Positions 1 through 9,180 of a DNA stretch of 64,000 nt are shown here, piece by piece. A model generated the notes under the pieces. That model saw nothing but the letters and a program-made list of their open reading frames with translations. It did no database searches and had not been told where the DNA came from. The stretch's first letter is position 1; every line of letters starts with the position of its first letter. The translations under genes and the position numbers were made by a program. Source of the DNA: Planctomycetota bacterium (GTDB taxonomy: Bacteria; Planctomycetota; UBA8108; SXIK01); contig OZ244999.1 of assembly GCA_965223265.1 (NCBI GenBank), forward strand, positions 5,888,001-5,952,000. Direction: 5' to 3'.

Positions 1-256
1 TCTTCGAGAAGTCGATACCGTTCTGACGGATCCTTTCTTCGCGGGAGACGCGGAGTTAGCAAAAGAGGGATCAGCTTCTCGGAGAAGTCGATACCTTTTT
101 CGTTCGTGGCGGCTTTGATCGACGAATGCACGATCTTCAGATTCGGTGGAGAGATCAACGGGGGAGATTGAGGATTCGGAGCTCGGGTCTCGGCAGCGGA
201 TCCGACTCACTCTGCGGGTCGAGGCCGAGAATCGACACTACTGCGTTCTGGGTCGG

Positions 257-940
257 CTATTTCTCGCGGAGCCGCATTGCCGACATCTGCGACCCGCTCA
301 GGGAGTAGTGGTACTCGATACCGGCCTTGTCGATCGACCGCAAGATTTCGAACGGCTCATCCAGTTGTTGGTCGAAGGACACGCGATCTCTGATCAGAAC
401 GGCGTCTTTGGTCGAAACGCCGAGCAGCTTCGCGTCCTCGCTACTGGGCCGATCGATCTTCAGAGACTCCTCGGCGCGCACCAATACTACTCCGTACTCC
501 CTTTCATACAGTCGCATCAATCCCGAGATGTCCTTCTCCAGAATCCCCGGGCACCGACGCGGAAGCAGATAAACCTGCTGAATCGCGAATGGCACTCCGT
601 TGCCTCGACGAAGGCGTCGAATGCTGATCACCTTTGATCTCCGCGGAATCCCAAACGTCTCTCCTACCGAAGGGGGAACTTCCCCGGCGGAAGCCAACTC
701 GCAACGCAGCACCTCGTTCTCCGGTCGTATCCCCTGCGACGACAGCTGCTCCTGAAATGACAGGATCTCACCCGCGTTCTTCCTGAACAGGGGCGCGCCG
801 CGCCGGACGAACGTCCCCTTCGCAGGAATTCGTTCGATCAATCGGTCCGCCTCCAAGTCGTCCAATGCCCTCCGGACGGTGCCGCGCGAAGCCGAGTGCT
901 GTTTCTGGAGGTCCTCCTCTGTGGGCAGTTGGTCGCCCAC
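257..940 (-). CDS. GntR/HutC-family regulator with UTRA domain (N-terminal helix apparently missing)
   Basis: GDQLPTEEDL..SRGTVRRAL..L...LIERIPAKGTFV winged HTH plus UTRA-like C-terminus. An in-frame TAG shortly upstream removes the usual first helix. Confidence 0.85.
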   Translation of the reverse strand: MGDQLPTEEDLQKQHSASRGTVRRALDDLEADRLIERIPAKGTFVRRGAPLFRKNAGEILSFQEQLSSQGIRPENEVLRCELASAGEVPPSVGETFGIPRRSKVISIRRLRRGNGVPFAIQQVYLLPRRCPGILEKDISGLMRLYEREYGVVLVRAEESLKIDRPSSEDAKLLGVSTKDAVLIRDRVSFDQQLDEPFEILRSIDKAGIEYHYSLSGSQMSAMRLREK

Positions 941-1177
941 CTGGAGTCGCCTGTTGTCTGTGCCGTCGCGACGCTATTCTGTCGTTCGGAGGGTAAGTCG
1001 TGGTTGCGTCTCATGCTGAGCTCCCTCGATGAGATCATGCAACGCATGGCAGCGGGGAACACAAAGCCCCCCATGGGACAAGGGACGAGTTACGGATGAC
1101 GACGCACGCGAGTCCACTGCCACACTAGCGCGTGCATCGTGGCCTTGAAGCGGAAGCGTCCGGTTCGACAGTCTCTA

Positions 1178-1325
1178 TCAGCGACCCGCAGCGTTCCGCC
1201 GATCGCGGCACCGATACTGAATCGCCTCCGCAACGAGGATGGCAGAGACGTGTTCCTCGCCCGCCAGGTCGGCGATGGTGCGGGTGACCTTGAGGGCTCG
1301 GTGTACGCATACGCGCTGGGAGCGC
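1178..1325 (-). pseudogene. comM: 3' remnant of ComM/YifB Mg-chelatase-like ATPase
   Basis: (SAYAY)/HRALKVTRTIADLAGEEHVSAILVAEAIQYR matches the ComM C-terminal motif SARAYHRILKVARTIADL...EAIQYR. There is a 1-nt frameshift near 1305 and the rest of the gene is absent. Confidence 0.8.
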
Positions 1326-1953
1326 GCGGGCGAAGCCGGAGCGCTTGGTTGATGCCGCCGCGCTCTGGAGAAGCCCTCGCTCCAGTGCGCCGTCGCAGGG
1401 TATTCAGTCTGGATGGAAGGGTCTGTTCCCGCAGGGACGAGAGACAAGACGGACACTGGCTTAAGCCAGCAGAGAAGCCCGGAGTTTTTCCGCTCTCCCG
1501 AAAACACAACAGTTGTCTTACCCCGCGAAGATTGCGCGGTTACAAGTTCGGGACAGGTCTGACGTCCGTTCTTCGAGAAGACGCTGCCGCTCTATTCCTA
1601 TCTCTCCCACAGCGTTAGAGATTCGGATATTCTCTCTCCGCTCTCTCGATCACTTCGCTCGTCTATCCCCACGAACGACCTCGAGATAATCGAAGAAATC
1701 CAGGTGACATTCCTCACTAGGTGAGGATGGATCACTTCGAGGGAGACAAGTTTTTCAGATCAACGAGCTTGGAGATTCTGATTTGCAATCTCGTCCTGAC
1801 AGGTTGGGAGGGAAGGTCGATCGGGGCCAGGTGAATCTCGCCGGACTGGAGACGTCGTCCACTTTCGGTATAAACGACGTCTTTGGTAATCCCCGGCGGC
1901 GCTCCATCTGAAACCCATGTTTCACGGAGGCAGTTCGGATCCAGGAGCGCGCC

Positions 1954-2562
1954 CTATGTCAGGAGCCGCCGGATCCGCCGCCTTAGGTAAGGCAGAACCT
2001 CGCTTTCAAACCAAGGGTTGTTCTTGAGCCAAATGTTGTTCCGAGGGCTAGGGTGAGGCAGTGGGATGCGGGCGGGTCTGTACTCCTTCCACGAACGCAC
2101 CGTTTCCGTAAGCGTCTGTTCTCGTCGCCCGAGATGCCAATCAGTGGCGTACTGCCCAATAACGAGCGTTACCTTCACTGAGGGCAAGCGCTCGAGTACA
2201 GACTCTCTCCATGCCTCAGCGCACTCCGGCCGTGGGGCCAGGTCTCCGGATTTCCCAGTGCCGGGGTAGCAGAACCCCATCGGCAGGATCGCGATTTTCC
2301 TGGCGTCATAGAACGTGGCCTTCGATACCCCCATCCACTCACGCAAGCGATCGCCGCTCGGATCAGCGAAGGGCACCCCGGATTCATGCACCCGGCGACC
2401 TGGGGCTTGACCGGCAATCAGTACCGGAGCTTCGGAATGCACCTGGAAGATGGGGCGTACTCCATCCTCCAGGTGCTCTTCGCAGAGGCGGCATGCACGA
2501 ATGTCGCGCAGAAGTTGCGTCAGGCGCTGGTTCGCAGCTCGTGATGGCTTGCTGTGTTTCAC
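1954..2562 (-). CDS. Uracil-DNA glycosylase superfamily protein
   Basis: CRLC N-terminus, GQAPG motif A, PF.DPSG.RL, LPHPSPRN motif B. Confidence 0.9.
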   Translation of the reverse strand: MKHSKPSRAANQRLTQLLRDIRACRLCEEHLEDGVRPIFQVHSEAPVLIAGQAPGRRVHESGVPFADPSGDRLREWMGVSKATFYDARKIAILPMGFCYPGTGKSGDLAPRPECAEAWRESVLERLPSVKVTLVIGQYATDWHLGRREQTLTETVRSWKEYRPARIPLPHPSPRNNIWLKNNPWFESEVLPYLRRRIRRLLT

Positions 2563-2597
2563 TTGCGACGCGTCCCGTGGCTAGCGTCCGCGACGGA

Positions 2598-2948
2598 CTA
2601 CGCCTGGTAGAACTTTTCGGAAACTACCCGCCCGTCATTCCAGCGTCGAACGAGGACCTCTTTCCAGACAATTGGCTCGCCGCCTGCGCCGGTCATGTCG
2701 AAGGTGAACTCGCTCATTGTGAGGTCATCACCCACGCTGTTGCCGTGGAGCGTGGCGCCGTTGAAACTCTTGAGAGACGCGAAGAAGCCACTGAGGTGAT
2801 TGTGCTGAGCCTGCCGACTCTCGCGACGAGAGCCATCGGGTTCCTCGAACACACACTGATCTGCATAAAATTTCTCGAGGGCCGCAAGGTTTTCGCCTTT
2901 GGCAGTCAACTCATCCAACGCAACAACTCTTTGCTCGAGATCACTCAT
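2598..2948 (-). CDS. SnoaL/NTF2-like protein
   Basis: 116 aa; ALEKFYAD...EP pattern and C-terminal RRWNDGRVVSEKFY. Confidence 0.8.
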   Translation of the reverse strand: MSDLEQRVVALDELTAKGENLAALEKFYADQCVFEEPDGSRRESRQAQHNHLSGFFASLKSFNGATLHGNSVGDDLTMSEFTFDMTGAGGEPIVWKEVLVRRWNDGRVVSEKFYQA

Positions 2949-3041
2949 GTGGGGTTCCTCTCGTATAGGTTGGGTGTTACTAAAACATCCGCTGCTTCGT
3001 TCCGGATTGACGGAGCCGGGGATCGCGAGCGCAATTCTCGC

Positions 3042-3416
3042 TCAAGGGACTTCTACGATCTCTGGCTTTAGGCTCTCGGTAAAGCGCAGCACCTCGCCTT
3101 TCTCCCGTTCTGGGACTTCGAAGGTCTCCAGAGCTGCGGTTAGGTGGTCGACCGCGCGCCTCCAGTCTTCTTCGGCGATGCGCATCCCAATATGCGCGGT
3201 CTTCATGTCACGGCCCGTGTAAACCATCGGTCCGCCCGACGATGCGCACAGAAAGTCGACCAACAATTGCTGCTCGCGCGCGATCCCGTCCGCGCCCCGG
3301 TGATCGTAGGAACGGCGCAGTTTGTCGTCATCTTTGATCCGCACCATCAACGCGTCTGTGACGGCAGCAATGGCGTCATACCCGCCCAGGCGTTCGTAAA
3401 GAGACGTGTTCGACAT
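3042..3416 (-). CDS. Group I truncated (2/2) hemoglobin, cytoplasmic
   Basis: SLYERLGG, GGPMVYTGRDMKTAH (proximal His); GGAGG RBS before ATG 3416. Confidence 0.9.
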   Translation of the reverse strand: MSNTSLYERLGGYDAIAAVTDALMVRIKDDDKLRRSYDHRGADGIAREQQLLVDFLCASSGGPMVYTGRDMKTAHIGMRIAEEDWRRAVDHLTAALETFEVPEREKGEVLRFTESLKPEIVEVP

Positions 3417-3483
3417 GCTGGTATCCTCCCTAAGACGGCTGGTCCGGCCAGATCGAGATGATCGCACCATGGCTCATCCCGAA

Positions 3484-5130
3484 TCACTTGAGTGGGTAAT
3501 CGGTCAACACGTAGTCGTGGCCGACGGAATGGCATCCAAAGCAGCGCGCCACGCCGTTACTGCTAGCACGTGGTGCGCTGGAATCAGTGGTGCTAGTCAC
3601 TTCGTACCAAAACCAGCCCTTGCCACCGTCGCTTTCGTCCTGCGTCTTCAGCATGACGGCCCAGCCTTCGAGCTTGCCGCTAGCATCGAACATCTCCTTC
3701 ACAGCTCCTGCACCCTTGGGGAGCGCTTTCCTGCCAGCCTTGAGCGCGTCGTTCATCCTTGCGTTCATGAAAACCTTCACCGGGCGCCCGAACTTGGAGT
3801 GCGGACCGCTCGAAGGGTGCATTTTCGATTCACTGGCCGGGAAGTTCTTGTACTTCCCATCGACAAGGAATTGGAACAGCGGCTCTTTCCCGGTCGGAAC
3901 GCCTCCGACTGAGCCAACCGGCGTTTCTGAACTGGGTTGTCTCGCCATCTCGCCAGCCATCCTGAGCCGGCGCATGGCTTCTTTACACTCCTTGCATGTA
4001 TTCCTGTCGTGCGACTTAGCTCCTGGTTTGGCTGCTCTCAGGACAGGGTAGTACTGAGTGAATACAAAGTCCTCCGCCGCAGCCTTCTCGTGACACTGGT
4101 TGCAGGCGAGGCGCGACTGCACTTTCGTTGTATTCGCCAGGGGATACTCATGGCCGAAACTAAAGTAGGCCCAATTGCCGGGCTGGTCGGGGAAGTGCTC
4201 CTTGCTCTTGATGGTGACCTCCAGGCCGATGAAGTCCCCCATGAAGTAGCCCGCGCCGCTAACGGCCTGCTTGCTGCCGACGCTGATCAGTTCTTTGATC
4301 AGAGTCGTCCCTTCGCGAAACTCACCTGTCTTCGTATAGTGTGCCCACGAACCACGGTCTATATAGACAGCGTGAAACTCCGGGAACGGTGCTGCCCCGG
4401 CGTTCATATCGTGTGGGGTGAGGGGCGTCCCGACGTAGACCCATTCGCGATAGCCCTCAGGGCGAACAAGCTGCTTGTTCCCGTCGAACTTCGGCCCTTT
4501 CCATTCGGTAGAGGCCGCCTTCGAGCCCTTTGCGGCTCGTAGAACGGGGTAGTACTGTGTGAATACGAAGTCGTCAGACGCCGAGCCCGCATGGCACGCG
4601 TTGCATGCTTGCGACGGGAATCGCTTGGCCGTGTCGGCCAGCGGATACTCATGGCCGAAGCTGAAGTAGGCCCAATTGCCGGGCTCGTCGGGGAAGCGCT
4701 CCTTGCTCTTGACGGCAGCCTCGAGCCCGATGAAATCGCCCATGAAGTAACCTGCTCCGCTAGTGGCCGCCTTACTGCCGACGCTGGTCAGCTCCTTCAC
4801 GAGGACTGTACCCTCGCGAAACTCACCCGTGTTCTTGTAGTGCTCCCAGGACCCCGGGTCGATGTAGACGCTGTGGAACTCCGGGAACGGAGCGTTACCG
4901 TCGTTCATATCGTTGGGAGTGTGCGGCGTGCCCACGTACACCCAGGAACGATAGTCCCTCGGACGGAAGAGTTCCCCTGCCGTGGTAAACTTTCCCGGGA
5001 AACCTACACCCTGGGCGAGAGCCGCCGTGTTTTGTCTGTGATCGACGGTCAGAGCGGCGACGACCAGGGCCACGGCGGCACAGGTCGACAGCACCCACAG
5101 CGATAGACGAATTGTTCTTCGATGGAACAT
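3484..5130 (-). CDS. Exported multi-domain cytochrome P460-family protein (3 CxxCH)
   Basis: Signal/TM N-terminus. Two repeats of YR.WVYVGTP.TP.DMN.G.APFPEFH.VYID...GEFREGT...KEL.SVG...GYFMGDFIGLE...CNxCH...DFVFTQYYPVLR. A third P460-like domain has AVKEM, GWFWYE and CFGCH. AGGAG RBS. Confidence 0.9.
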   Translation of the reverse strand: MFHRRTIRLSLWVLSTCAAVALVVAALTVDHRQNTAALAQGVGFPGKFTTAGELFRPRDYRSWVYVGTPHTPNDMNDGNAPFPEFHSVYIDPGSWEHYKNTGEFREGTVLVKELTSVGSKAATSGAGYFMGDFIGLEAAVKSKERFPDEPGNWAYFSFGHEYPLADTAKRFPSQACNACHAGSASDDFVFTQYYPVLRAAKGSKAASTEWKGPKFDGNKQLVRPEGYREWVYVGTPLTPHDMNAGAAPFPEFHAVYIDRGSWAHYTKTGEFREGTTLIKELISVGSKQAVSGAGYFMGDFIGLEVTIKSKEHFPDQPGNWAYFSFGHEYPLANTTKVQSRLACNQCHEKAAAEDFVFTQYYPVLRAAKPGAKSHDRNTCKECKEAMRRLRMAGEMARQPSSETPVGSVGGVPTGKEPLFQFLVDGKYKNFPASESKMHPSSGPHSKFGRPVKVFMNARMNDALKAGRKALPKGAGAVKEMFDASGKLEGWAVMLKTQDESDGGKGWFWYEVTSTTDSSAPRASSNGVARCFGCHSVGHDYVLTDYPLK

Positions 5131-5281
5131 CGCGACGTTCTCCTGGAAGCGGTTCCTTGTCCCGACTGTTGTCCCGGGAGTCGGTAGTTGCGCTGCTCTT
5201 CTTGGGCCCAGAACTGACGAAGCGCTCAGCACCTGCCAACTGCGGATTCAGCCGAGATACGTGCAAAAACTGCCGCGCGAG

Positions 5282-5803
5282 CTACGTACGCTCAACTATG
5301 TCTGGCTTGAGCGTGCCGATGATCGAGAGCAGTTCTCGCTTTTCTTTGGCGGGCACTTCGAACCTGTCCAGAGTATCCACCAGGTGGTTCACAACGACGT
5401 TGAAGTCTGCTTCCGTGATTCCCAGCCCTCCGTGAACGGTTTTGGCAGGTCTGCTGAGGATCTTGCACGGCCCGCCCGTGACGTTGCAGACCAGATTGAT
5501 GTTTTTCTGGATGAACGACTGACGGGTGTCCGTACCCATCCCCTTGAAGAAGGGTCCGACCTGGGGATCGATGAAGAGCTTCGCGGCGAAGTCGTTCACA
5601 ACCGCCGAGACGGCGTCGTAGCCGCCGAGTCGCTCATAGAGCGTGCGGCCGGTCGCGGACGCGCTTGGCTTGGCCGCAGGTGGTACATCCTGGACCGCGG
5701 ATTTGGCGAGGCGCGAGTGGCTCGAGCAGCCTAGCGCCGCCAGAACGACGGCTATGGCTCCGAGGGGCAGCACGAGGCAGCGAGAACGAGTGATCCGGGA
5801 CAT
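5282..5803 (-). CDS. Group I truncated hemoglobin with lipoprotein signal peptide
   Basis: Lipobox-like VLAALG-C, then TLYERLGG...TGGPC...KTVH (proximal His). Confidence 0.85.
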   Translation of the reverse strand: MSRITRSRCLVLPLGAIAVVLAALGCSSHSRLAKSAVQDVPPAAKPSASATGRTLYERLGGYDAVSAVVNDFAAKLFIDPQVGPFFKGMGTDTRQSFIQKNINLVCNVTGGPCKILSRPAKTVHGGLGITEADFNVVVNHLVDTLDRFEVPAKEKRELLSIIGTLKPDIVERT

Positions 5804-5942
5804 GGAATTGGTTTCCTTTCTGAGGTTTGACGTCGCGAGCTGGGGTTGATCCAGATGCCGAGCGGATTGCCTTCACTACCTATAGCTGCGAGAATGGTGG
5901 TCGGATTTGGACAACCACTTGCAGGGTTTCTTGCGGATTTCT

Positions 5943-6551
5943 ATGCGGGATCGTCAATCGAACCAGGTGACAGTTCTTTTGGAAGCGATTCGCCGTGGCG
6001 AGTCGCCGGCAGCAGCTGAACTCCTGCCACTCGTCTACGACGAGTTGCGTAGACTTGCAGAGCGTGAAATGGCGAAGGAGCGCCGAGGGCACACGCTTCA
6101 GCCGACGGCTCTCGTCCATGAGGCCTATTTGCGCCTCGTAGGCGGCGCGGAAGTGCGCTGGGAGGGACGCGTGCACTTTTTTCGTGCTGCGGCTCAAGCG
6201 ATGCGACGGATTCTGGTCGATTCTGCTCGCCGACGGGCGACCCTGAAACACGGGGGCGCGGCCCGGGTACCGCTGTCGGAAGCCAGTGCCGTTGCCGATG
6301 AACCGCGCCCAGCCGAGCTGCTAGCACTCGACGAGTCCCTCGACCGACTGGAACAGCGAGACCCGAGGAAGGCGGATGTTGTGAAGCTGCGCTACTTTGC
6401 AGGGCTGTCCATAGAAGACACGGGGGCAGCCCTGGGCGTGACTCCCCGGACCGTCACCCGTGATTGGACCGCGGCCAAAGCATGGCTATTTCGTGATATC
6501 ACAGGAGATCACGAGCAGGCACACAAAGGGTCCCCGACTAGTGGACGCTGA
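5943..6551 (+). CDS. ECF sigma factor (planctomycete kinase-associated type)
   Basis: LLPLVYDELRRLA..HTLQPTALVHEAYLRL; region 4 with RDW..AKAWL. Confidence 0.93.
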   Translation: MRDRQSNQVTVLLEAIRRGESPAAAELLPLVYDELRRLAEREMAKERRGHTLQPTALVHEAYLRLVGGAEVRWEGRVHFFRAAAQAMRRILVDSARRRATLKHGGAARVPLSEASAVADEPRPAELLALDESLDRLEQRDPRKADVVKLRYFAGLSIEDTGAALGVTPRTVTRDWTAAKAWLFRDITGDHEQAHKGSPTSGR

Positions 6552-9180
6552 TCGCTGGGAACGTGTCTGGTCCGTCTTCCACGCTGCACTGGAACGAGTC
6601 GAGCGGGATCGAGCCGGATTCGTCGAAGAAGAGTGCGGCACTGACAAGAGTCTGCGCATCGAAGTTTTCGCGCTGCTACGCTCGCATGAGAGCGCAAAAA
6701 CGTTCCTCGAAGACCCACTGAATCCACGCCCGGCTTCACCGCAGGCGATGATTGGTCAGCTCGTTGATCGGTACCGACTACGCTCGGTGATCGGTTCCGG
6801 GGGGATGGGCACAGTCTTCCTCGCCGATCAGGAGGAGCCGATCAAACGCGCCGTAGCATTAAAGGTCGTAAAGCTCGGAATGGATACAGCGGAGGTCGTC
6901 GCGCGATTCGAATTGGAGCGTCAGAAGCTGGCAGAGCTTAACCATCCTAACGTCGCTCTAGTGTTCGACGCTGGTGCAACAGAGAACGGTCGACCGTACT
7001 TTGTGATGGAGTACATTCCGGGGATTCCAATCACGGATTATTGCGACGCGAACAGCTTGGGGATCGGCGATAGGATAGAGCTCTTCCTCCCCGTCTGCGA
7101 GGCCCTTGAGCACGCACACCGACGGGGGACTCTTCATCGTGACATCAAGCCGTCGAACGTTCTTGTTGAGGTCGTCGATACTCGAGCGGTCCCGAAAGTA
7201 ATTGATTTTGGCCTCGCGAAAGTCGTCGACGGTCGGACGCGCGTTGCAGCTCCTGATACCGGCTACGGGAGGATGATCGGAACGCCTGAGTTCATGAGTC
7301 CGGAACAGGCATTGGGGGTCTCCAACATAGACGGAAGGACTGACGTCTACTCTCTCGGCATGCTTCTCTACGTGCTACTCGTTGGTAGCCACCCCCTTGT
7401 CAAAGAGCTGCAGAAGGAGTTCCCGGAGGATCTGCGTCGCAAGATTCGGGATTTCGACACTCCACGGCCGAGTGCTCACCTCAAGCAACTTTGTGAGGAC
7501 AGTATCGGAATTGCTGAACGTCGAGCGACGAACGTTCAGTCGCTCGACCAGCAGATCCGTGGTGACCTTGATAACATCGTCATGAAGGCGACGGCCAAGG
7601 AAAGGAACCATCGGTACGGATCGGCATCGGAATTCGCAGCGGACCTGAAACGGTACGCGAACTCAGAACCAGTTCTCGCGGTCCGCAGAGAAAAACGACC
7701 GGCGAGGCTGGCGGTCATCGTGGCTGTCGCTGTACTTGCCGTCCTCGTTGGTGGAGTTGCTGTTGCCATCTTCAAGTCGTGGTCGAGCGAAAGAGTTGCT
7801 CTGGCGGTACTTCCCTTCGCCACCGTCGGAGGAGATTCACGGCAAGATTACTTCAGTGACGGACTCACCACAGAGATCATCTATCGCCTGGGGAGAGTCG
7901 CCCCCGAAGATCTTGTGGTCATCGGTCATACAACGATGCTGCGGTACAAAAACAGCGAGAAATCGACCGACGAAATAAGCAAGGAGTTGAAAGTCGACTA
8001 TCTACTTGAAGGTAGCGTGAAATATGAAGGTGACCGTCTCTGGATCAATGCTCAACTCATCCGAACAAGCGATCAGACTCACTTGTGGGCCGAGAGTTTC
8101 GAGACAACGACCGCTGATGTCATTACGACGCAGCTCAAGCTTGCCCTCAATGTCGCACGGAACCTCGCTGTCGAGGTGCTACCGAAACGAAGTCGGATTG
8201 ATAAGTCTGCCGTCGTCGATCCACTGGCATACAAGGCGCATCTCAATGCGCGCCACTTTCGATCCATGGTCTCCGAGAACGGGCTTCGGAAGGCCATCGA
8301 ACACTTTCAGATCGCACTCGATCATGATTCGAGTTTCGCAGACGCATACGCCGGAATGGCTGCCTGCTACTGCCTGCTTTCGGGTCACGGCCTCGAGGTC
8401 GATCAGCCAAGCGCCTTAATGCCGAAGGTGAAAGACATGGCAGAAGCTGCTCTTGCCTTGGACGATGAACTTTCGGAGGCGCATGGAGCGCTTGGCATGT
8501 CCAAGCTAAAGTACGAATGGGACTGGGAAGGGGCGCGAACGCGGTTCCAAAGGGCAATCGAGTTGGATCCGAACAACCCCTTGTCTCGCATCTGGTATTC
8601 CTTCTACCTGTCCTCCCACGGGCGGCATGACGAAGCCATCGCCCAAGTCGAAACGGCCAGAGAGCTTGATCCGTTTTCAAAGGTCTCCAACGTCAACCTC
8701 GCCTGGCAGTACTACATGGCACGGCGGTACGAGAAAGCGCTCGAAGAGTTCAATCATAGCCTGGAGCTGTTTCCGGAGTTCTGGGTCGCCCTCTGGGGGC
8801 GTGGCCTCGTATATGCCCAACGCGGTCTCAGCAAGGAGGCTGTTGCCGACCTCAAGGGTGCGGTTGAGCGATCCCGAAACGACCAATCAGCTCTCGGCGG
8901 GTTGGGCTTGGTTTTCGCTAAATTCGGAGAGCGAGAAGAGGCTGAAAGAGTTGTCGAGTCGCTGACAGAACTGTCGCAGAACACGCATGTTCCACCGACG
9001 AGCGTTGCTGCGATCTATGGCGCTCTCGGCGATATCGATGAGGCGTTCCAATGGCTCGAGAAGGCTTACAGGATTCGCTCCAGGTCGATGGTCTGGCTCA
9101 GAGTCGGCCACGAGTTCGACCCCTTTCGTGGTGACCCTCGGTATCAAGACTTATTGCGGCGCATGAGACTGAATGACTAG
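6541..9180 (+). CDS. Ser/Thr protein kinase with TM helix, TolB-like domain and TPR repeats
   Basis: GSGGMG, VALK, HRDIKPSN, DFG, GTPEFMSPEQ; AVLPF..DYFSDGLT; TPRs. Overlaps the sigma-factor stop. Confidence 0.93.
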   Translation: MDADRWERVWSVFHAALERVERDRAGFVEEECGTDKSLRIEVFALLRSHESAKTFLEDPLNPRPASPQAMIGQLVDRYRLRSVIGSGGMGTVFLADQEEPIKRAVALKVVKLGMDTAEVVARFELERQKLAELNHPNVALVFDAGATENGRPYFVMEYIPGIPITDYCDANSLGIGDRIELFLPVCEALEHAHRRGTLHRDIKPSNVLVEVVDTRAVPKVIDFGLAKVVDGRTRVAAPDTGYGRMIGTPEFMSPEQALGVSNIDGRTDVYSLGMLLYVLLVGSHPLVKELQKEFPEDLRRKIRDFDTPRPSAHLKQLCEDSIGIAERRATNVQSLDQQIRGDLDNIVMKATAKERNHRYGSASEFAADLKRYANSEPVLAVRREKRPARLAVIVAVAVLAVLVGGVAVAIFKSWSSERVALAVLPFATVGGDSRQDYFSDGLTTEIIYRLGRVAPEDLVVIGHTTMLRYKNSEKSTDEISKELKVDYLLEGSVKYEGDRLWINAQLIRTSDQTHLWAESFETTTADVITTQLKLALNVARNLAVEVLPKRSRIDKSAVVDPLAYKAHLNARHFRSMVSENGLRKAIEHFQIALDHDSSFADAYAGMAACYCLLSGHGLEVDQPSALMPKVKDMAEAALALDDELSEAHGALGMSKLKYEWDWEGARTRFQRAIELDPNNPLSRIWYSFYLSSHGRHDEAIAQVETARELDPFSKVSNVNLAWQYYMARRYEKALEEFNHSLELFPEFWVALWGRGLVYAQRGLSKEAVADLKGAVERSRNDQSALGGLGLVFAKFGEREEAERVVESLTELSQNTHVPPTSVAAIYGALGDIDEAFQWLEKAYRIRSRSMVWLRVGHEFDPFRGDPRYQDLLRRMRLND

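Follow-up and report, generated by a model that had tools for sequence, protein, structure and literature searches.

A planctomycete gene cluster pairing an exported truncated globin with a three-domain cytochrome P460: a candidate reactive-nitrogen defence module

The cytochromes P460 characterised so far, such as CytL of Nitrosomonas europaea (NeP460; PDB 2je2/2je3) and the P460 of Nitrosomonas sp. AL212 (6amg), are single-domain homodimers of nitrifiers and methanotrophs; the family has been studied almost only in this form. In excerpts of a 2025 review of the family, known P460 sequences are said to come from proteobacteria (PMC11928373), and a search of the whole text of that review for tandem, fusion, globin, operon and planctomyc- found none of these terms. 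Here, a cluster of five co-directional genes is described from the minus strand of a 64,000-nucleotide stretch of a Planctomycetota genome (hereafter the window), at positions 1954-5803, where a P460 with three domains in one chain is encoded next to a predicted exported truncated globin (Table 1). Domains 1 and 2 of this protein have in common with the N. europaea enzyme the fold, the cross-link Lys, the distal Glu, the capping Phe, the CXXCH motif and predicted periplasmic export. The window protein differs from Nitrosomonas P460 in its divergent third domain, which resembles M. capsulatus P460 and cytochrome c'-beta and lacks the carboxylate, in its host, which has no ammonia monooxygenase (AMO), and in the pairing of its gene with an exported globin.

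Few periplasmic globins are known, and the free-standing, Sec-exported and disulfide-bearing globins predicted here would join them. The closest parallel is lPHCtX of cable bacteria, for which excerpts of the original description report a periplasmic truncated-haemoglobin domain together with a pentahaem cytochrome and propose a reaction of O2 with the cytochrome electrons (PMC11976967). In both cases a truncated globin would lie in the periplasm next to c-type haem domains, so that lPHCtX is a precedent for exported globins; however, as far as those excerpts go, lPHCtX carries its globin as part of a multihaem electron-transfer cytochrome, with a proposed function as terminal oxidase, whereas the window globin is a separate protein whose gene is linked to that of a predicted catalytic P460. 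Literature searches on P460 with truncated haemoglobin, on P460 gene neighbourhoods and on Planctomycetes with hydroxylamine returned no description of a P460-globin pairing (supplements lay outside their scope), in keeping with a preliminary description of this DNA, which knew of no operon of such composition. One metagenome paper, in the part available, counts PF16694 as 'hydroxylamine detoxification' in Isosphaeraceae.

The analyses presented below delimit a conserved core, consisting of a sensor, the exported globin and a multi-domain P460, with the cytoplasmic globin, the SnoaL-like gene and the gene resembling uracil-DNA glycosylases (UDG-like) as recurrent optional companions. Among the loci surveyed, core and companions were seen all together in the window alone. 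With a probability of about 0.5, we read the cluster as a reactive-nitrogen defence or detoxification module built around a periplasmic enzyme pair, with accessory cytoplasmic genes. This reading draws on the residues of P460 chemistry, the linkage of globins to P460 and their export, the recurrence of the UDG-like, SnoaL-like and sensor genes, and the context of the host genome. An exported-globin subclade and a conserved sensor, both genetically tied to P460, supply specific candidates for both a partner and a regulator of this cytochrome and point to overlooked reactive-nitrogen handling by ordinary bacteria.

Domains and residues of the P460 and the two globins

All three domains of the window protein belong to the P460 superfamily, with PF16694 scores of 99.2, 96.5 and 31.5 bits for domains 1 to 3 (cut-off 27) and a CXXCH haem motif in each (CNACH, CNQCH and CFGCH, respectively). 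The N-terminus, read by eye, is signal-like (MFHRR...AALA/QG), as would suit a periplasmic c-type cytochrome, and the 548-amino-acid form is exactly the form present in the protein collection. The protein matches NeP460 (2je2) through domain 1 with an E-value of 4.5e-58, its domains 1 and 2 being about 55-60% identical to the N. europaea sequence. In domain 1, VKEL supplies the counterpart of the cross-link Lys (which we take to be Lys70 in NeP460), GLE the distal Glu, APF the capping Phe, and in FPEFH a His takes the Arg44 position. Domain 2, with 71% of its residues identical to domain 1 (hhalign E-value 1e-113), has VKEL and GLE as well. Domain 3 aligns to domain 1 with 91% probability, its VKEM falling on the Lys and an Ala on the Glu column, with a 12-residue loop deleted. 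The distal carboxylate equivalent to Glu96/97 of NeP460 is therefore present in domains 1 and 2 and absent from domain 3. Across P460 homologues the cross-link Lys columns are invariant (36 and 45 sequences), and the Glu and Cys/His columns vary little or not at all (36 sequences).

The distal Glu is required for NH2OH oxidation, as published work confirms. In the alignment the position of Glu97 is occupied by Ala in wild-type AL212 P460, which is inactive on NH2OH, and by Glu in the engineered active variant of the same protein. According to excerpts of the two papers from which the residue roles used here are taken, NH2OH oxidation is abolished by Glu97Ala and restored by Ala131Glu (PMC6457333; PMC11928373). 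Judged from sequence, domains 1 and 2 carry every known determinant of NH2OH oxidation, namely the Lys, the Glu, the capping Phe and CXXCH, and they are predicted to be two catalytic domains, with domain 3 as a putative 'halfway-house' domain. The fitness of the protein for NH2OH oxidation that the preliminary description had supposed is thus borne out at this level; of its triple cytochrome P460, the three domains stand, and the third is without the catalytic carboxylate. On sequence alone domain 3 gave no meaningful match in the PDB, and its class was settled by profile and fold comparison. Its AlphaFold2 model reached a predicted local distance difference test (pLDDT) score of 93.3 (77.4 for the whole protein), and in a Foldseek search all 18 chains listed at ranks 1-21 were P460 or c'-beta structures, led by M. 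capsulatus P460 (6hiu, E-value 2.4e-4).

Both globins are group I truncated haemoglobins, all their top PDB matches being of this group and the proximal His being invariant in 38 sequences. The best solved relatives of the exported globin are chains of Mycobacterium tuberculosis HbN (1idr and 5ab8, E-values of about 1e-16; 1.4e-16 for 1idr); the cytoplasmic globin matches group 1 truncated haemoglobins with an E-value of 2.5e-15. The exported globin has the proximal His (His81 of 1idr) and the Gly-Gly motifs in common with HbN and differs from it in the distal pocket, with Ala at B10 (Tyr33 in 1idr), Phe at E7 (Leu54) and Asn at E11 (Gln58), as well as in its predicted signal peptide or lipobox-like site and its Cys pair (C-x3-GG-x-C). 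In HbN, TyrB10 and GlnE11 form the distal hydrogen-bond pair. To our knowledge, HbN is made without a cleavable signal peptide. The cytoplasmic globin has Met at B10, Glu at E7 and Leu at E11.

The two-compartment arrangement proposed for the globins in the preliminary description is upheld, one protein having a signal peptide and the other an N-terminus without a hydrophobic stretch. The exported globin begins with a charged segment followed by a hydrophobic stretch that ends in LAALGC, lipobox-like by eye, and so looks lipid-anchored; in its orthologues the N-terminus is a plain signal peptide with a terminal site of the Ala-x-Ala type, or has a twin-arginine-like motif, and the lipobox Cys is absent. 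Among 60 globin open reading frames (ORFs) with a start of the LYERLGG type, 47 have a hydrophobic N-terminal extension and 48 the Cys pair, and homologues without the extension mostly lack the Cys pair too. The globins of two loci (L078 and L033) have twin-arginine-like motifs, and that of L078 is without both Cys. Taken as a group, these sequences fit a disulfide-bearing periplasmic globin. When P460 (residues 43-548) and the exported globin in its mature form were modelled as a complex, from a separate alignment for each, the score was 0.02 against a mark of 0.32.

Recurrence of the pairing and its companions

P460 homologues are widespread. The protein collection holds 565 of them, 301-959 amino acids long, with labels including Planctomycetota, Pirellulales, Arenicella, Kofleriaceae and Latescibacterota. 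In order to compare gene neighbourhoods, the best 80 of at least 574 P460 loci in a collection of species-representative genomes were taken with their neighbours within 8 kb, and were analysed by tblastn with the window proteins and by an unbiased clustering that took in 1178 ORFs. Of the 104 P460 ORFs in these loci and the window, 56 combine one canonical domain with one divergent domain of the domain 3 type (D3), so that the commonest form among the surveyed loci is multi-domain; 40 are single canonical domains, often as two adjacent genes, and the remainder are canonical-canonical-D3 (4), D3 alone (2), canonical-canonical (1) and canonical-D3-D3 (1). Multi-domain forms occur in Acidobacteriota, Gemmatimonadota, Bacteroidota, Planctomycetota, Myxococcota and other groups, and the canonical-canonical-D3 form in the window and three other loci (L005, L006, L007). 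The triple P460 of the window is therefore a rarer fused variant of a widespread, unstudied family. Two adjacent single-domain canonical genes without fusion were seen in many loci (for example L097:5230-6566, L096:1893-3180 and L070-L080), which fits an origin of the fused forms from tandem genes.

In Flavobacteriaceae a canonical-D3 gene is followed by a canonical P460 gene. Here, P460 lies in an island of recurrent order (L054, L055 and nine other loci, e.g. L054:2741-11688): SnoaL-like, YHS-like, in some cases UDG-like, two or three AraC regulators, a protein of 115-128 amino acids, the two P460 genes, a protein of 160-180 amino acids and two methionine sulfoxide reductase genes. This island has no globin and its layout is unlike that of the window. 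For the small proteins directly 5' of P460 in Flavobacteriaceae, considered as possible SnoaL relatives, the hhalign probabilities were only 69% and 28%.

Globins were found by tblastn near multi-domain P460 in 11 of the 80 genome loci, from four phyla (labels Acidobacteriota/Bryobacterales, Gemmatimonadota/Longimicrobiales, Marinicaulis and Planctomicrobium). Nine of these globins are of the exported type, 58-82% identical to that of the window and mostly directly upstream of P460; the other two, both from Gemmatimonadota, are of the cytoplasmic type and lie downstream. In other phyla, orthologues of the exported globin next to P460 reach 65-84% identity. Orthologues of the cytoplasmic globin were found downstream of P460 in L032 and L022 (63-86% identity) and beside exported globins in L085 and L096 (64-82%). 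In one Bryobacterales locus (L014:5503-7727) an opposite-strand ORF of 443 amino acids (6090-7421) splits the exported globin upstream of P460; it belongs to a cluster present in 5 loci and looks like an insertion element. A reciprocal survey covered 80 metagenome loci centred on relatives of the exported globin, on contigs with a median length of 3.1 kb, so that its counts are lower bounds. P460 was on the same contig in at least 12 of these loci by tblastn and 13 with clustering, and was the sole real family recurring in more than 6 of them. The link follows relatedness, P460 being linked to 8 of 19 globins at 60% identity or more and to 1 of 35 below 50%. Within the 9.18-Mb host genome there is a single P460 locus and three Bac_globin genes, two of which flank P460 (the third is unlinked, at G000:C1:4843636-4843983). 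Since, in addition, the same pairings recur in other phyla, the co-occurrence of globin and P460 exceeds chance. No P460 homologue was found in 40 relatives of the host genome (family to class level, completeness 55-96%).

The unbiased clustering returned as recurrent neighbours a methionine sulfoxide reductase cluster (15 loci), AraC regulators (13, Flavobacteriaceae), extracytoplasmic function (ECF) sigma factors (11), globins (9, including the window), SnoaL-like proteins (8), a Haem_bd protein (8), a glutaredoxin-thioredoxin-reductase fusion (7) and UDG-like proteins (5). The preliminary description had noticed neither the methionine sulfoxide reductase and thioredoxin-reductase genes that accompany P460 in other phyla nor the divergent ECF sigma factor and kinase-sensor pair beside the window cluster. 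Residues 443-902 of the kinase (window 7786-9165) consist of an unassigned part of about 230 amino acids and tetratricopeptide repeats (TPR). Over nearly all of its length, this sensor region has 36-44% identity to proteins encoded beside globin or P460 in L010, L012, L014, L023 and L032; the match covers most of the region in L083 and L060 (40-42%) and only part of it in L033 and L051 (31-33%). Altogether it occurs in 9 of the 80 P460 loci, 7 of them among the 11 globin loci, and also in two metagenome loci (L093, L101); elsewhere its fusion partner is a kinase or a Trans_reg_C DNA-binding domain. On these sequence matches it is the best candidate sensor of the globin-P460 module. The GntR/UTRA regulator downstream of the cluster had no homologue in the 80 P460 loci by tblastn.

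The UDG-like protein matches over its full length PDB entry 3ikb, an 'uncharacterized conserved protein' without assigned function (E-value 5.7e-51), and Thermus thermophilus family-4 UDG only at 8.7e-6. Both of its motifs, GQAPG (motif 1) and HPSPRN, are also present in 3ikb, for which no paper was found in the literature; GQAPG differs from the LEAP motif 1 of the DR0022 family. A UDG-like gene was found within 8 kb of P460 in 5 of the 80 loci (two Flavobacteriaceae, one 'delta proteobacterium', Pirellulaceae and Planctomicrobium) and each of the five genomes (4.9-7.6 Mb) has a single copy of it. Random placement would give, by a rough estimate, about 0.3 such loci in 80, and the two Flavobacteriaceae among the five are not independent. 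This links an uncharacterised family to nitrosative or oxidative stress loci. The SnoaL_2 protein belongs to PF12680 (cut-off 27 bits) and matches PDB 3hk4 (E-value 3.8e-5). Its homologues occur near P460 in 6 of the 80 loci by tblastn and in 8 by clustering; those of a Marinicaulis and a Phycisphaerae genome (L023 and L058) are 55-63% identical and lie 129-159 nt upstream of P460.

Proposed function and alternative explanations

According to the mechanism proposed here, hydroxylamine would be bound at the two canonical domains of the exported P460 and oxidised to an iron-nitrosyl and then to NO or N2O, while domain 3, with its Lys and no proton-relay carboxylate, probably binds ligands or passes electrons rather than acting as a catalyst. 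The exported globin, encoded immediately upstream, would be a dedicated periplasmic partner of P460 that most likely traps or dioxygenates released NO, accepts electrons, or both. NO crossing the membrane would be handled by the cytoplasmic globin, deaminated bases would be removed by the UDG-like glycosylase, and the SnoaL-like protein may have an accessory role. The five genes may be co-transcribed, and their expression is probably controlled by the divergent ECF sigma factor and kinase-sensor pair. More tentatively, exported truncated globins could be the missing physiological partners of P460 in non-nitrifiers and form with multi-domain P460 a self-sufficient periplasmic system, linked to O2, for the oxidation of hydroxylamine and NO, in which the globin takes electrons, NO or both (e.g. 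converting NO to nitrate). Such a system would be controlled by a dedicated TPR sensor, and gene transfer would have carried it into soil and marine heterotrophs of at least five phyla. If this extension, which we regard as doubtful, were true, such heterotrophs would consume hydroxylamine that nitrifiers leak, as a sink so far overlooked, and could be a source or control of N2O; that heterotrophs might consume hydroxylamine or NO and release N2O is a testable route.

A respiratory or nitrifying role of the cluster is unlikely, since the host genome gave no match to AMO, to the alpha subunit of hydrazine synthase or to copper nitrite reductase (NirK) and only marginal fragments of cytochrome d1 and NrfA. 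The NosZ propeller had no match either, but the control for this search was silent as well. A check of the genome for amo, hao and hzs, which had been suggested at the outset, returned in addition one member of the hydroxylamine oxidoreductase (HAO) family, a multihaem cytochrome of 535 amino acids encoded 157 kb from the window (ORF 3624-5231, minus strand, of L165, G000:C1:5727000-5735000; PF13447 E-value 8e-23, PDB 4qo5 7e-37). It was rejected as a sign of nitrification, as it follows genes for a Rieske protein and a cytochrome b (6359-6880 and 5284-6342, both minus strand) and has its best matches in 4qo5 and 6h5l; it looks like a bc-complex-associated multihaem (octahaem-like) protein. 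The host is thus not an evident nitrifier, anammox bacterium or denitrifier. It also has a hybrid-cluster protein gene (G000:C1:1287118-1288350; Prismane, 365.6 bits), a possible cytoplasmic hydroxylamine or NO reductase.

Several observations weigh against a reactive-nitrogen module. No endogenous source of hydroxylamine was found in the host genome, so that for its substrate the module would depend on an external supply or on assimilatory nitrite reduction. The TyrB10/GlnE11 pair of HbN-type NO dioxygenases is absent from both globins (B10 being Ala or Met, E11 Asn or Leu), and their sequences do not imply NO dioxygenation; the buffering of NO by globins that had been supposed is not established. 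The repair of uracil had likewise been assumed: by sequence the UDG-like protein is a UDG-superfamily member of an uncharacterised family, far below the family-4 (UDGa) cut-offs (19.8 versus 125.3 bits for TIGR00758, 20.4 versus 250 bits for NF040953), and its motif 1 is without the acidic residue that families 1 and 4 have there. No globin lies within 8 kb of P460 in 69 of the 80 loci, and among 14 close globin orthologues flanked by 1 kb or more, 8 have no P460, the two genes being often, though not necessarily, linked. The five genes occur together in none of the 160 other loci (80 genome and 80 metagenome), so that of the conservation required by the preliminary description the pairings of P460 with globin, UDG-like and SnoaL-like genes hold and the full set does not. 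Methionine sulfoxide reductases and the glutaredoxin-thioredoxin-reductase fusion are among the commonest neighbours, a context that general oxidative stress fits as well as nitrosative stress. Sigma-54 activators beside P460 elsewhere could not be identified as NorR, the five tested scoring 354-385 bits against 476 (NF003451) and sharing only the GAF, AAA+ and HTH_8 architecture with it. Finally, the genes are separated by 151 nt (exported globin/P460; 49 with the GTG start), 67 nt (P460/cytoplasmic globin; 13 with the longer frame), 93 nt and 35 nt, and the gaps of 93-151 nt leave room for internal promoters.

Some of these points would suit a smaller functional unit, comprising only the exported globin, P460 and the sensor/regulator, with the cytoplasmic globin, SnoaL and UDG-like genes as neighbours by history in this genome, outside any common operon or pathway. 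The uniqueness of the five-gene set, the low frequency of the UDG-like and SnoaL-like genes, found at variable distances and on variable strands, and the gaps of 67-93 nt ahead of the cytoplasmic globin and SnoaL genes are all in line with it. On the other hand, the UDG-like gene, though single-copy, is found near P460 in four or more separate lineages besides the window genome, cytoplasmic-type globins recur beside P460 or the exported globin (L022, L032, L085, L096), and no minus-strand terminator-like site was found within the cluster, the nearest being a hairpin at 1086-1066. In one locus (L078), moreover, the UDG-like gene and P460 have sigma-54-like -24/-12 elements in common (TGGCAC-N5-TTCGC, at 5609-5624 and 6456-6471), which precede the UDG-like gene by 89 nt and the first P460 gene by 62 nt, against a background of 0.056 sites per kb, and which adjoin a gene for a GAF-sigma-54 activator (3103-4707). 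No such motif was found upstream of the five window genes or in most other loci. We consider this restricted unit rather unlikely.

More remote from the hydroxylamine reading, the module could answer general oxidative or chlorine stress, with P460 acting on peroxide or another periplasmic oxidant and the globin as its O2- or peroxide-handling partner. The counts of methionine sulfoxide reductases and of the thioredoxin-reductase fusion would accord with this, as would a host without nitrifier or denitrifier genes, and peroxide does belong to P460 chemistry, cross-link formation being peroxide-dependent in excerpts of the family review (PMC11928373). Yet domains 1 and 2 keep exactly the Glu that, as far as the excerpted sources go, is needed only for NH2OH oxidation and has been lost from natural inactive P460s, and no peroxidase role for P460 was found in the literature, which makes such a function improbable. 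The same peroxide requirement could assign to the exported globin the part of a maturation factor, supplying periplasmic, O2-derived peroxide for the haem-Lys cross-links of the three P460 domains instead of taking part in catalysis: in those excerpts O2 alone is insufficient for the cross-link (PMC11928373). The globin gene lies directly upstream of P460 in many loci, and its distal pocket is without TyrB10, a lack that would favour autoxidation. But 69 of the 80 P460 loci have no globin nearby, and the excerpts also report that aerobic expression is enough for NeP460 to become cross-linked in the absence of a partner (PMC11928373), and a role in maturation is accordingly very improbable. The reading of the cluster as a reactive-nitrogen defence module remains the preferred one.

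Locus layout

The five genes were delimited from the ORF list and profile searches, and all of them lie on the minus strand, co-directional and closely spaced as first described; overall, the initial observation is confirmed and its interpretation partly supported. The features of the locus are listed in Table 1.

Table 1. Genes of the cluster, domains of its P460 and adjacent regulator genes (positions in the window)
Feature	Position	Strand	Remarks
Exported globin gene	5282-5803	-	173 amino acids; PF01152 E-value 5e-10
Cytochrome P460 gene	3484-5130	-	548 amino acids from ATG; ORF open to GTG at 5232; PF16694 x3
P460 domain 1	4495-4998	-	canonical N. europaea type; aligned to 2je2, 8gar, 6amg, 6e17
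P460 domain 2	3985-4494	-	canonical; same Lys and Glu as domain 1
P460 domain 3	3487-3933	-	divergent P460/c'-beta fold; Ala for distal Glu
Cytoplasmic globin gene	3042-3416	-	124 amino acids from MSNTS; start MSNTSLYERLGG; ORF open to 3470; PF01152 E-value 2.3e-15
SnoaL_2 / NTF2-like gene	2598-2948	-	116 amino acids, predicted cytoplasmic; PF12680 34.4 bits
UDG-superfamily gene	1954-2562	-	202 amino acids; PF03167 E-value 1.6e-23
ECF sigma factor gene	5907-6551	+ (divergent)	PF07638 E-value 2.1e-58
Ser/Thr kinase + sensor region gene	6460-9180	+	Pkinase and TPR matches
GntR/UTRA regulator gene	257-940	-	beyond UDG-like gene

The ECF sigma factor and kinase genes overlap by 92 nt (6460-6551), which suggests that their products form a coupled pair. 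A promoter scan of window positions 900-6300 found no sigma-70-like site, and Rfam searches of positions 1-7000 gave no match at E-values up to 0.1. From the GntR/UTRA regulator to the UDG-like gene (941-1953), a segment of about 1 kb holds unconvincing ORFs only and has no Rfam match. The guanine-cytosine content of the cluster (0.59) falls inside the range of the window (0.575-0.648), and there is thus no compositional sign of recent transfer. Among the sequencing runs listed for this DNA none is of RNA, and four cover the locus fully, with long, flat and near-identical contigs that probably represent the source DNA.

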